A DNA stretch of 9,743 bases. It comes from a virus (Duplodnaviria > Heunggongvirae > Uroviricota > Caudoviricetes). The stretch lies in IMG/VR virus record IMGVR_UViG_3300029623_000287, one strand, 5' to 3'. Numbering within the stretch: the first letter of the stretch is position 1; each line of letters starts with the position of its first letter. Shown here piece after piece: positions 3,766 to 9,743 of the stretch. Made by a program: the position numbers and the translations under genes. The notes under the pieces were generated by a model, which did not search any database, was not told the DNA's origin, and saw only the letters and a list, made by a program, of their open reading frames with translations.

Positions 3766-4623
3766 CTAATTGGGTGATAACAGATCCTGTGTATGGGAGT
3801 TTCCCTTTTTGCGTGCGTTGATGCTGGTAACGGCAAACGTCATGATGAACAAAACCGCGAATAAGACGACAATCGTCGGAGCTGGTGCGCTGTCGATAAA
3901 AAAGGACAACCAGACACCAGTCATTGACACTATTACCGATATGCCAGTCGCCAGTAGGAGCGCAATGTGAAAGCGTTGTGTCAGGAGTACCGCAATGGCG
4001 CCAGGCGCAATGAGCAGAGAAATGGAGAGAATGATACCTACCGCTTTCAGCGTCGCCACAATGGTCAGAGAGACCATGCACAGCAGCCCATAATGCAGCC
4101 ATCTCGTATGCAAACCGCTTACCTGCGCCTGTTGATAATCAAAGCTGAACAGCAAAAAATCCCGCCATTTTACGCTAATAACAAGTGTAACCAGCCCGGC
4201 AATAATCATCGTCTGGATTATATCGCCGATGGTTATCCCGAGCATGTCGCCGAAAAGAATATGGTCAAGATGTACGTCTGGTTTGACTGCAATATACAAG
4301 ATCAGACCTGCGGCAAACATGCCAGAAAAAACAATCCCCATCACTGTATCTTGCTTGATTCGGCTGTTGTCTTTCAGGTATCCCGTCGCCACCGCGCAGA
4401 ATACTCCGGCGACGAATGCCCCTGTAGCCAAAGGTAACCCCAGAATCCAGGCAAGCACGATGCCAGGAAAAACCGCATGACTCATCGCGTCACCCATCAG
4501 TGCCCAACCTTTCAGGACCAGAAAGACCGACAGCAGCGCACAGGGTATGGAAACTAACAGTGAAATCAGCAGTGCGTGACTCATAAAGGTGAACTGCAGT
4601 GGCTCCAGTAATAATGCCATCAT
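3766..4623 (-). CDS. sitD: Mn2+/Fe2+ ABC transporter permease SitD
   Basis: 285-aa polytopic membrane protein, paralogous to the upstream permease. Its ATG overlaps the sitC stop by 4 nt (ATGA). It is the last gene of the four-gene operon. Confidence 0.92.
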   Translation of the reverse strand: MMALLLEPLQFTFMSHALLISLLVSIPCALLSVFLVLKGWALMGDAMSHAVFPGIVLAWILGLPLATGAFVAGVFCAVATGYLKDNSRIKQDTVMGIVFSGMFAAGLILYIAVKPDVHLDHILFGDMLGITIGDIIQTMIIAGLVTLVISVKWRDFLLFSFDYQQAQVSGLHTRWLHYGLLCMVSLTIVATLKAVGIILSISLLIAPGAIAVLLTQRFHIALLLATGISVIVSMTGVWLSFFIDSAPAPTIVVLFAVLFIMTFAVTSINARKKGNSHTQDLLSPN

Positions 4624-5477
4624 GAGCGATCCTCCAGCGCCTTATGTGCACGCCGACGATTTGCCAAAAGCCCATGGGTGGGCGCAAAGACAAATGCTAA
4701 AAGAAACAGCAGTGTCTGCGCCACCACGATGATTCCACCTGTCGCGCCGTCCAGAAAGTAACTGACCCACGCGCCGAGGAAACTGGTTACACTGCCAATA
4801 GTTACAGCAATCATGAGCAGGCGGGGAAAACGATCGGTTAACAACCATGCTGTTGCACCGGGAGTCACCACCAGACAGATCACCAGAAAGGCACCAACCG
4901 TTTGCAGCGCCGCAACGGTCGAAACCGACAGCAGGGTGAAGAAGAGGAGTTTTAATCTGCCCGGATGCAATCCAATAGCACGGGCGTGATTCTCGTCGAA
5001 AAAGGTCACCATAAGATCTTTCCATTTGAAAAAAAGCACGATGATCGAGAGAATGCCAATGATAGTGAGTTGCAGGATATCCGCCGGATCGATTGCCAGA
5101 ATATTGCCCAGGACGATGGTCTGAATGTTCACAGATGTCGGGTTCAATGACACCATAAACAGCCCCAGGCCAAAAAAGGACGAGAAGATCAGGCCGATGA
5201 TGGCATCTTCTTTTAAGCGGGTGCGTTGGTTAAGAAACAGCATGCTGCCCGCAGCCAGTCCGCCGGAAAAGAAGGCTCCCAGAGAAAACGGAAGCCCCAG
5301 CATATATGCCCCCGCAACACCCGGGACAATAGAGTGCGACAACGCATCGCCAATCAGCGACCAGCCTTTTAGCATCAGATAGCATGACAGGAAAGCGCAG
5401 AGACCGCCGACCATCGCCGAGACCCACATCGCATTGAGCATATATTCATAGCTGAAGGGTTCCAGTAGCACGTTCAT
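4620..5477 (-). CDS. sitC: Mn2+/Fe2+ ABC transporter permease SitC
   Basis: 285-aa polytopic membrane protein of the ABC-3 (metal-type) permease family. Its ATG overlaps the sitB stop by 4 nt. Confidence 0.92.
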
Positions 5478-6301
5478 CTTTCTTCCCTCTGCACCGCTGA
5501 CGGTCGATGAGCCACAAAAGGGCGTTCATCGTCAGTAATAATGCTTTCTTCCGAGCCGTTAAGTGTGACATGGCGCAGTACGCCGCTAAAAGCCAGCTCC
5601 AGGTTCTCGGCTGTAAAAGTGGTGTCTGTCGGCCCGCTTGCCAGGACGGTGCCTTTGACCATGACCGTATAATCGCAAAATGTCGTGACGGATCCGAGAT
5701 TGTGTGTTGAGACAAGCATCGTTTTGCCTTCCGCGCGTAACTCCCTCAACAGGCTGATGATTTTGGCTTCGGTTTTCACATCAACGCCAGTAAAAGGTTC
5801 ATCCAGCAGGATCACATCACCCTGCTGTGCAATCGCTCTCGCCAGAAAGACGCGTTTCTTTTGTCCACCGGAAAGCTCGCCGATTTGTCGATGGCGAAAA
5901 TTCACCATATCGACACGTTCCAGCGCATCGGTGACAATTTGACGATCCCTCTTTTTGGCGATACGCAACATACCCATATGCCCATAGCGGCCCATCATCA
6001 CCACATCTTCCACCAGTACAGGAAATGACCAGTCAACCTCTTCTGACTGAGGGACGTAGGCAACCAGGTTTTTCTGTAACGCCTGTCGCGTGGGAATACC
6101 CAGAACAGATATCTTTCCGCTGGTCAGACGCACAAATCCCATAATCGCTTTAAACAACGTCGATTTTCCGGAACCGTTTACCCCAACCAGAGCGGCAATA
6201 GATCCACTTGGTACTGTGAAGGATGCATCGCGCAGTGCTGTGTGCCCGTTACGCCAGGTGACAGTAACATCATTAACGACAATGCCTGCAGATTGCATCA
6301 T
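5474..6301 (-). CDS. sitB: Mn2+/Fe2+ ABC transporter ATP-binding protein SitB
   Basis: Walker A ([10 protein letters not shown]), ABC signature (LSGGQKKR) and Walker B (VILLDEPF) are all present. The start overlaps the sitA stop (TAATGATG). Confidence 0.95.
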
Positions 6302-7215
6302 TATTTCTCCCTTTTCCCGGCTTTAATTCCCTGTACCAGCGTACTGGTAGTAACCTTAAGAAGGTCGATATACGTCGGTACCGGGCCGTTTTCTGTGCTC
6401 AGTGAATCGACATAGAGCACACCGCCGTAGTGTGCGCCGGTTTCACGCGCAACCTGACGCGCTGGTTTATCGGAAATCGTACTCTCGCTAAAGACTGCCG
6501 GGATATGATTTTTCTTAACTATATCAACAACCTTACGTACCTGCTGCGGTGTTCCTTGTTGATCGGCATTAATCGGCCACAGATAAAGCTCTTTTAGCCC
6601 CAAATCGCGTGCGAGATAAGAAAAAGCCCCTTCACTGGTGACCATCCATCGCTGATTCTCAGGGAGTTCCGTAATCTGCTTACGCAGGGGGGCAAGGGTT
6701 TGGGTAATCTTGGCTTTATAAGTATCGGCATTGCGTTGGTAGGTTTGTGCATTTGCCGGATCGTATTTTATCAACGCATCACGAATATTATCGACGTAAA
6801 TCAGAGCATTATCTGGCGACATCCATGCATGGGGGTTAGGTTTGCCCTCATAGGGTCCTTCGGTGATCCCTACAGGCGTCACACCCGAAGAGACAATTAC
6901 TTCTGGAACCCCATTGAGATGCTGGTAAAAGCGTTGGAACCACAATTCCAGATTCATACCATTGGCGAGAATCAGTTGTGCCCCCTGCGCACGTTTAATA
7001 TCGCCAGGGGTAGGCTGATACTCATGAATTTCTGCACCAGGCTTGGTTATGGATGAGACTTCTGCAGCATCTCCTGCCACGTTTTTGGCCATATCCGCGA
7101 TGATGGTAAATGTTGTAATGACCTTGAATTTTTCAGTTGCACTTGCCTGAAATGCGATCGAGCAGGTGAGTGCGAGGCCCCCCAAGAGCATGGTTACTTT
7201 TTTTATTGAGTGCAT
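6301..7215 (-). CDS. sitA: Periplasmic Mn2+/Fe2+-binding protein SitA (cluster A-I substrate-binding protein)
   Basis: 304 aa with an N-terminal signal peptide ([26 protein letters not shown]). The sequence matches SitA as I recall it (EKFKVITTF..., [12 protein letters not shown]..., NPHAWMSP...). It is the first gene of the operon, directly downstream of the Fur and MntR boxes. Confidence 0.95.
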
Positions 7216-7247
7216 AATTTAGTACCTATAGTGAGCAAAATTAGAAC

Positions 7248-7269
7248 AAACATAGCAACGGCTATGTTT
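7248..7269 (-). promoter_or_regulatory. MntR-type operator (perfect 9-4-9 palindrome AAACATAGC-aacg-GCTATGTTT) in the sitA promoter region
   Basis: The perfect inverted repeat is read directly, 33-54 nt upstream of the sitA ATG. It matches the MntR box architecture recalled for enterobacterial mntH/sitA promoters. Confidence 0.7.
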
Positions 7270-7291
7270 TATAACATAACCTATACAAAAT

Positions 7292-7310
7292 GAAAATGAT
7301 TATCATTAAC
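7292..7310 (-). promoter_or_regulatory. Fur box in the sitA promoter region
   Basis: gaaaatgattatcattaac matches the 19-bp Fur consensus GATAATGATAATCATTATC at 16 of 19 positions, including the central AATGATxATCATT core. It lies 77-95 nt upstream of the sitA ATG. Confidence 0.7.
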
Positions 7311-7655
7311 AACTTTGGGGCCCAAAACAGGGATTAGGTTGTTTCCTACTGGCGACGTGTTATTGAGGAAAAAAGTAAGGCAGCTAGTAGGCTTTGAAAT
7401 AACGTTTTGCGGTTGGCTGATGCAATTTCGAGAGTGCATGTATTGAATAATTTTCGACCGTTATTGTTTTCACGCGTAACACCATGAAAAGACTACTTAT
7501 CTGTTGGGGTGTTTTTTGGGGCATATATGGGACAGAAATAGGCCACAGATAGATAGTAAGATCGAACTCAGGATGCTTTTGAAAAAATGTAACTATCTGA
7601 AAAAACCTAGAAAGTGCCAAGGAAACCACAGGATGAGAAAAAACACTTGTGAATT

Positions 7656-9027: not shown

Positions 9028-9743
9028 ATGGGAAATCATTTGTTATCAGCAAAAGCGACGCTCCCTGTTTATGATCGTAATAACCTGGCCCCAAGAATTG
9101 TTCATTTAGGCTTTGGTGCATTTCACCGTGCACATCAGGGCGTGTATGCCGATATTCTTGCTACGGAACATTTCAGTGACTGGGGATATTATGAGGTCAA
9201 CTTAATCGGCGGCGAACAGCAAATTGCCGATTTACAACAGCAAGATAATCTTTATACCGTTGCGGAAATGTCGGCTGATGCGTGGACGGCTCGCGTCGTT
9301 GGCGTCGTTAAAAAAGCCTTGCACGTACAAATAGATGGCTTAGAAACCGTGTTGGCTGCGATGTGTGAACCGCAAATCGCGATTGTCTCTCTGACAATCA
9401 CCGAAAAAGGGTATTTCCACTCTCCGGCGACCGGACAGTTAATGCTTGATCACCCGATGGTCGTTGCCGACGTGCAAAATCCCCATCAGCCGAAAACTGC
9501 AACAGGGGTGATTGTTGAGGCGCTGGCTCGCCGTAAAGCGGCAGGACTTCCCGCATTTACCGTCATGTCATGTGACAACATGCCAGAAAACGGTCATGTT
9601 ATGCGTGACGTTGTCACTTCCTATGCGCAAGCCATTGATGTAAAACTGGCACAATGGATCGAAGATAACGTGACTTTCCCATCAACAATGGTGGACCGTA
9701 TTGTGCCCGCAGTGACAGAGGATACGCTGGCGAAAATCGAACA
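9028..9743 (+). CDS. ydfI: Mannitol dehydrogenase family oxidoreductase (YdfI-like, UxuB-like mannonate/polyol dehydrogenase); 3' end beyond the window
   Basis: ATG at 9028 with an AAGG Shine-Dalgarno site 7 nt upstream. The N-terminal [14 protein letters not shown] motif is the dinucleotide-binding signature of long-chain mannitol dehydrogenase family enzymes. The frame is open to the window end. Confidence 0.88.

Follow-up and report, generated by a model that had tools for sequence, protein, structure and literature searches.

The region between positions 7216 and 7320 of the analyzed DNA (the window, 9,743 nucleotides in full) is very probably the native promoter-operator of sitABCD, at which Fur and MntR repress a Mn2+/Fe2+ ABC importer carried by a prophage. 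The motifs, their conservation, the arrangement resembling that of mntH and the phage context were established in this analysis, and regulation by Fur and MntR is taken from the literature. A Fur box and a perfect MntR palindrome were found upstream of sitA. A second, weaker MntR core lies between them in a fixed register.

The sit operon and its prophage setting

Since sitA is the minus-strand open reading frame at 6301-7215, positions 7216-7320 form the sitA upstream region. The other genes of the operon follow on the same strand (Table 1). E. coli chromosomes with RefSeq annotation match the region at 99.8% identity. Their gene order is gpJ, lom, a gene for the side tail fibre, three small genes and, on the opposite strand, sitD-C-B-A. 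Beyond sitA, the RefSeq counterpart contains a ydfJ pseudogene without its N-terminus and then ydfI. The order J-lom-stf-sitDCBA-truncated ydfJ shows that the window covers the attR side of a lambdoid prophage in ydfJ, at its tail-fibre end.

The stf-sit module including its promoter is also present in infectious phages, among them phage 21, Perceval and ev017. Phage matches to the window run up to position 7471 or 7352, depending on the phage group. In phage 21 the module is located between the side tail fibre gene and attP/int. It has the properties of a phage moron: host-type genes lie between the late genes and att, they have a promoter of their own and they occur in infectious phages. The operon had been read before as phage-borne cargo, and both the prophage gene order and the same module with its promoter in infectious phages bear this out. 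The known phage-borne sit morons (phage 21, OL657228; prophage 042p3 of EAEC 042, PMC2808357) have the same operon and promoter. As in the window, sit of lambda-like coliphages follows the side-tail-fibre genes in opposite orientation. The integration sites differ, with the prophage of the window in ydfJ and phage 21 using icd. Mathieu et al. (2020, PMC6969025) found sitABCD in 70% of the lambda-type coliphages that came from infant stools, and noted a fur box in front of each phage-borne sit operon that they examined. The passages considered here name the fur box only, whereas the window shows MntR boxes too.

A stretch of 115 bp from the sitA promoter was found in 27 phage records (phage 21 and 26 others), and none of the 27 has an operator annotated at this promoter. 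Among 5426 complete E. coli genomes, 2356 contain the stretch, with 1681 copies located on chromosomes and 1009 on plasmids; ColV-type plasmids carry it at approximately 89% identity. On the other side of the promoter, homology to the ydfJ side of other E. coli records begins near position 7392, with an identity of approximately 89%. By these alignments, both a mosaic joint and the junction of prophage and host fall within approximately 300 bp of the sit promoter (window 7352-7655). A small candidate open reading frame of 52 amino acids (7281-7439, minus strand) was noticed upstream of sitA on the sitA strand. As placed in the window, it would extend into the Fur box and the -35 element. Phage 21 has an annotated hypothetical protein of 41 amino acids, CPT_21_29, in the matching region (positions 9346-9471 of the phage 21 locus, L002).

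Fur and MntR operators upstream of sitA

The upstream region was compared with the Fur consensus GATAATGATAATCATTATC. The matching box, GTTAATGATAATCATTTTC on the sitA strand, has two mismatches in this sense and three on the plus strand, and the number of such boxes expected from 200 shuffles was 0.00. Thus the box put forward in the preliminary description with 16 of 19 matching positions was recovered at that score on the plus strand, and it matches better when read with sitA.

Next to sitA lies the palindrome AAACATAGC-CGTT-GCTATGTTT (sitA strand), which reads AAACATAGCAACGGCTATGTTT on the plus strand, i.e. AAACATAGC-AACG-GCTATGTTT. A scan with the 9-4-9 pattern gave no mismatch (18/18) at exactly the coordinates claimed previously. 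This was the sole match in the window, even when up to three mismatches were allowed, and the expected number was 0.01. The palindrome was also compared with the consensus AACATAGCnnnnGCTATGTT (PMC1698941), which was published independently for enterobacterial MntR sites; PMC1698941 cites Ikeda 2005. All 16 specified positions were matched, and the consensus half-sites AACATAGC-N4-GCTATGTT were found here as an inverted repeat with a 4-bp spacer. Relative to the sitA ATG, the Fur box covers -95 to -77 and the MntR box -54 to -33, so that both are located within 100 nt of the gene, as had been stated.

Table 1. Features of the sit locus in the window, and perfect MntR-type palindromes in three further IMG/VR contigs
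Feature	Position	Strand	Basis or remark
sitD	3766-4623	-	stop/start codons overlap with sitC
sitC	4620-5477	-	stop/start codons overlap with neighbours
sitB	5474-6301	-	stop/start codons overlap along sitBCD
sitA, periplasmic Mn/Fe-binding protein	6301-7215	-	open reading frame and RefSeq annotation of 99.8% identical locus
sitA ribosome-binding site AGGT	7224-7227	-	annotated at homologous position of phage 21; sequence identical
Proximal MntR operator, perfect 9-4-9 palindrome	7248-7269	both	pattern scan
Predicted transcription start	7259-7263, near 7261	-	inferred, about 7 nt after predicted -10
Predicted extended -10, TGtTATAAA (5/6)	7268-7276	-	read by eye; MntR box junction
Distal degenerate MntR core	7271-7284	both	2 of 10 core positions mismatched
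Predicted -35, TTTTCA (4/6)	7291-7296	-	read by eye; overlaps 3' end of Fur box
Fur box	7292-7310	-	17/19 to consensus; 16/19 on plus strand
Perfect AAACATAGC-N4-GCTATGTTT palindrome, contig L090	1238-1259		
Perfect AAACATAGC-N4-GCTATGTTT palindrome, contig L094	9375-9396		
Perfect AAACATAGC-N4-GCTATGTTT palindrome, contig L101	1075-1096		

The MntR site had been called unusually perfect. This does not hold when the promoter of mntH in E. coli K-12 is considered. This promoter reads GAATTTGATAATCATTCTC-15 nt-AAACATAGCAAAGGCTATGTTT-12 nt-ATG, in which a perfect 9-4-9 MntR palindrome comes after a Fur box. The window has exactly the half-sites of mntH, AAACATAGC/GCTATGTTT, and the mntH Fur box is located just upstream of them, over the likely -35. 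Read in the same way as the sitA promoter, mntH has its -35, TTGATA, within the Fur box, and its MntR box lies at the start. The two genes differ in that mntH encodes a different transporter (NRAMP) and has the spacer AAAG in place of CGTT in the window. Judged by its bases, the proximal MntR site of sitA is thus a canonical one, like that of mntH.

The predicted promoter

A scan of 7216-7320 with the sigma-70 consensus did not call a promoter. The scan missed the extended -10 because it required T at position 6 (-7). We infer the hexamers, the start site and the use of the distal MntR box from their position and sequence. The spacer between the predicted -35 and TATAAA is 17 nt. The Fur box overlaps the predicted -35 over 5 nt (the start site being a prediction as well). 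Two pieces make up the predicted -10, the right half-site from the distal MntR core and the AAA that flanks the proximal box. The proximal MntR box abuts the putative -10 of a manganese homeostasis gene, and the predicted start is placed inside the left arm or the spacer of this operator. In the orthologous promoters the -35 is kept as TTTTCA or TTTGCA, and TGnTATAxx is kept in most of them. Conservation thus backs the prediction of a sigma-70 promoter at sitA.

Conservation of the operators in Enterobacterales

The 160 nt upstream of sitA were aligned for 19 promoters: seven copies came from E. coli, phages and plasmids, and the remainder represent 12 other genera of Enterobacterales. The SitA loci were taken from one genome per species, with representative E. 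coli alleles added, and conservation was expressed as the majority-base fraction over the 13 genera. The half-sites of the proximal MntR box had a conservation of 0.99 versus 0.60 for their spacer. The distal MntR half-sites reached 0.95 and the predicted -35 0.88. The Fur box had a mean of 0.78 compared with 0.45 for the flank upstream of it. The spacers, the linker, the outer flank of the proximal box and the 5' UTR all fell between 0.60 and 0.65. Fixed half-sites with free spacers point to an operator for a protein and not to the stem of an RNA.

The alphaproteobacterial SitA loci (L023-L081) have no MntR box upstream. They carry Mur/MRS-type palindromes similar to TGCAAATCATTTGCA instead, in agreement with PMC1698941, and were left out of the footprint.

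A second MntR core in a 19-bp register

A distal, degenerate MntR core (ATAGGTTATGTTAT) is located upstream of the proximal one, the two beginning at -69 and -50, with starts exactly 19 bp apart. The inventory of boxes in the preliminary description has to be extended accordingly: the two sites that it listed stand, and this weaker core had been missed. On its own the core does not exceed chance, as the window contains eight matches with up to two mismatches where 3.65 are expected. It counts nevertheless, because it is found at a fixed homologous position. Two ATAGC-N4-GCTAT cores, with their starts exactly 19 bp apart, were present in 19 of 19 aligned sitA promoters. In the 18 promoters other than that of the window, the distal core had no or one mismatch in 17 and two in Citrobacter. 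We then compared 20 E. coli and phage copies. Two plasmid alleles had no mismatch in the distal core, 16 copies had one, and two mismatches were seen only in the window and in its 99.8% identical counterpart. The viral contigs among these 20 copies were chosen by a perfect proximal box, so that the near-universal perfection of this box is partly by construction.

The alleles differ in several details. At position 7274 the window has GTTAT in its distal core; GCTAT is found in each of the 18 other copies examined from E. coli, phages and plasmids. The altered base corresponds to the n in the extended -10 TGnTATAAA. It should thus weaken MntR binding and leave the promoter consensus untouched. 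In the ColV-type plasmid alleles (L087 and L089) the distance from the Fur box to the distal MntR core is shortened by a 2-bp deletion. These alleles have a weaker Fur box (four mismatches) and a perfect distal core, and the prophage alleles show the opposite. In L089 the left half-site of the proximal box is ATAGT.

A weak core of this kind may be idle. Only the proximal palindrome would then bind MntR, the distal core would be a decayed relic serving as promoter spacer and extended -10, and repression by manganese would be non-cooperative. We regard such a single operator as a serious possibility without holding it to be probable. The window allele, which together with its counterpart has the weakest distal core of the 20 copies, and the chance-level score of this core fit the idea, and in this allele the distal box may be inactive. 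A relic is harder to reconcile with the exact register in all 19 promoters and with distal half-sites that are nearly as conserved as the proximal ones. Furthermore, the same spacing is used elsewhere in E. coli. The MntR sites of K-12 mntS (rybA), TTAGCAATAGCTAT and ATAGCCTGTGCTAT, were confirmed to lie 19 bp apart. At mntH, a lone half-site is found 12 bp away on the upstream side, and there is no second core in the 19-bp register.

Paired sites of this geometry are known from Bacillus subtilis, where the cooperative MntR arrays of mneP and mneS consist of 18-bp sites with 1 bp between them (Shi et al. 2024, bioRxiv 10.1101/2024.06.28.601288). The same preprint describes the paired sites of E. 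coli mntS as having this geometry, and reports that weak sites beside strong ones get filled in cooperative arrays, which speaks against an idle distal core. The sitA cores have the corresponding register, and mntS, mneP/mneS and sitA are alike in having two MntR sites in a 19-bp register over the promoter. They differ in outcome: the mneP array activates an exporter, and repression of an importer would be the result at sitA. In the cryo-EM study, Y22, D27, E55, G59 and V61 of B. subtilis MntR were named as residues of the dimer-dimer interface, which gives cooperativity (bioRxiv 10.1101/2024.06.28.601288). When E. coli MntR was aligned with the B. subtilis protein, two of the five were kept (D27/D59 and G59/G91), and three were changed (Y22 to E54, E55 to I87 and V61 to F93). 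This low retention is in favor of a single operator. With the key tyrosine lost and two of five residues kept, we did not class the sitA pair as a cooperative array of the B. subtilis type. Since Tyr22 is replaced by Glu in E. coli MntR, cooperativity at sitA would have to use other contacts. Thus the paired geometry is present at sitA, the aligned residues lend no support to cooperativity via the B. subtilis interface, and the pair may still act like a cooperative array through other contacts.

We tentatively propose, as a possible but rather doubtful model, that the enterobacterial sit operator is a fixed MntR pair in the 19-bp register, that the junction of the two sites holds the extended -10, that the pair is filled cooperatively, and that mobile alleles tune the manganese response by eroding one site. 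If this is true, the plasmid alleles would keep both cores perfect along with a weaker Fur box, the prophage alleles would have a weakened distal core, and the window would represent the allele in which the distal core is weakened most. The design of the pair would then be common to sitA and mntS. A preprint (10.1101/2023.06.02.543501) proposes that mntS descends from the signal peptide of sitA and has inherited its control by MntR, and this descent fits the shared layout of paired operators.

RNA structure and chance resemblance

The proximal palindrome could in principle act as an RNA hairpin, either as an intrinsic terminator or attenuator of upstream transcription or as a structure of the 5' UTR, and would then not be a protein operator. 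A terminator scan flagged it as a 9-bp stem with a 4-nt loop, followed by GTTCTAATTT, and its fold has a free energy of -9.8 kcal/mol. This fold is no better than that of shuffled sequences (z -1.41; 19 of 200 shuffles fold as well). The stem has only three G-C pairs and the T-run is interrupted, which is not the composition of an intrinsic terminator. No Rfam family matched. The orthologs keep the sequence of the half-sites itself, without covariation, and identical half-sites are found at mntH. A transcript beginning at the predicted start, within the left arm, would lack half of the stem. The hairpin is thus very improbable, and we rejected an RNA element on account of the z value, the lack of an Rfam match and the sequence-specific conservation. 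That the boxes are functionless resemblances in an AT-rich intergenic region, where Fur-like sequences are common, can practically be dismissed, given the expected counts of 0.01 (MntR) and 0.00 (Fur), the fixed positions conserved across genera and the published regulation of homologous promoters.

Other MntR-like sites

The window contains a second exact MntR-type core, ATAGCATTGGCTAT, at 2430-2443 on the plus strand, within a tail-fibre accessory reading frame (2375-2656). Two exact MntR cores in 9.7 kb never occurred in 200 shuffles. The outer flanks of this core (ATGG and TATG) mismatch the operator consensus, and it is part of coding sequence. It is probably due to chance; by its core bases it could be a weak MntR site.

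IMG/VR contigs were also scanned for phage genes behind a perfect MntR palindrome. This gave 15 contigs, 11 of which were sitA promoters. Three of the 15 (L090, L094 and L101; Table 1) share one unrelated context that does not look enterobacterial. Their palindromes are located beside repeated motifs similar to TTGACACTTATA, with no sit gene nearby and no recognisable link to a gene. A second class of MntR-controlled phage cargo was thus not found among the 15 contigs, one of which was judged by its flanking sequence alone.

Comparison with known sit promoters

In enterobacteria, Mn-MntR represses mntH and sitABCD, with Fur as co-repressor (reviews PMC3852070, PMC8264917 and PMC8432900). For sit of Salmonella and Shigella, repression by MntR and Fur is described by Ikeda 2005 and Runyen-Janecky 2006, as cited in PMC3852070 and PMC8264917. 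For mntH of E. coli K-12, dual repression by Fe-Fur and Mn-MntR was described by Patzer and Hantke 2001, cited in PMC3852070. The sitABCD operons of Salmonella Typhimurium (SPI-1) and Shigella flexneri are orthologous to that of the window. The order of Fur box, MntR box or boxes and ATG is the same, at nearly equal distances. In S. enterica subsp. arizonae the Fur box begins at -99 and the MntR cores at -72 and -53, compared with -95, -69 and -50 in the window. The E. coli/phage allele differs from Salmonella by a stronger Fur box (two versus six mismatches) and a perfect proximal MntR box. The setting is different as well, since sit of the window lies on a lambdoid prophage and that of Salmonella Typhimurium on SPI-1.

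Closer to the window is the uropathogenic E. coli strain CFT073, in which sitABCD belongs to the direct Fur regulon (PMC7157518). A pan-regulon study by ChIP-exo found sitABCD to be regulated by Fur in two of three pathogenic strains (PMC10164565). CFT073 and phage 21 both have essentially the same sitA promoter as the window. Compared with the window, CFT073 differs within the boxes at one of the 19 Fur-box positions and at two bases of the distal MntR site (one in the core and one in the spacer), and its proximal operator and 5' UTR are identical. RefSeq lists sitA of CFT073 as a frameshifted pseudogene (L105, 9215-10151). A 2026 study reports sit-dependent phenotypes in this strain (PMC13463694), and the frameshift may come from a mistake in the old reference sequence.

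Discussion

A scheme that combines these sites with the published regulation would work as follows. Fe2+-Fur would bind the 19-bp Fur box and cover the -35. Mn2+-MntR would bind the perfect palindrome and cover the start point, and the weaker MntR core would cover the spacer and the -10. With iron or manganese in ample supply, the repressors would shut out RNA polymerase; with both metals scarce, sitABCD would be expressed. In this scheme the phage would supply DNA sites only, and the sensors Fur and MntR would come from the host chromosome. The mntR gene is present in E. coli K-12, and we assume from the species that the host strain of the window has both fur and mntR.

The repression by both manganese and iron that had been predicted for this operon would, by analogy, match the published sit regulation at the homologous promoters. 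The wider claim, that the cargo of a phage is placed under the metal control of its host, is supported by the motifs and the assignment of the genes, both of which hold, and by the footprints across 13 genera. The dual Fur/MntR switch of sitABCD is already known, and the Fur box of phage-borne copies was noted in 2020. The second MntR core is a small refinement of this known design. What the window adds is a clear instance of it and an allele whose second MntR site has one more mismatch.

In summary, the sitA promoter of the window shows a fitness or virulence operon that is carried by a phage and wired into the metal sensing of the host. This bears on the question of when lysogens gain from such cargo, for instance during metal starvation in the gut or the urinary tract.
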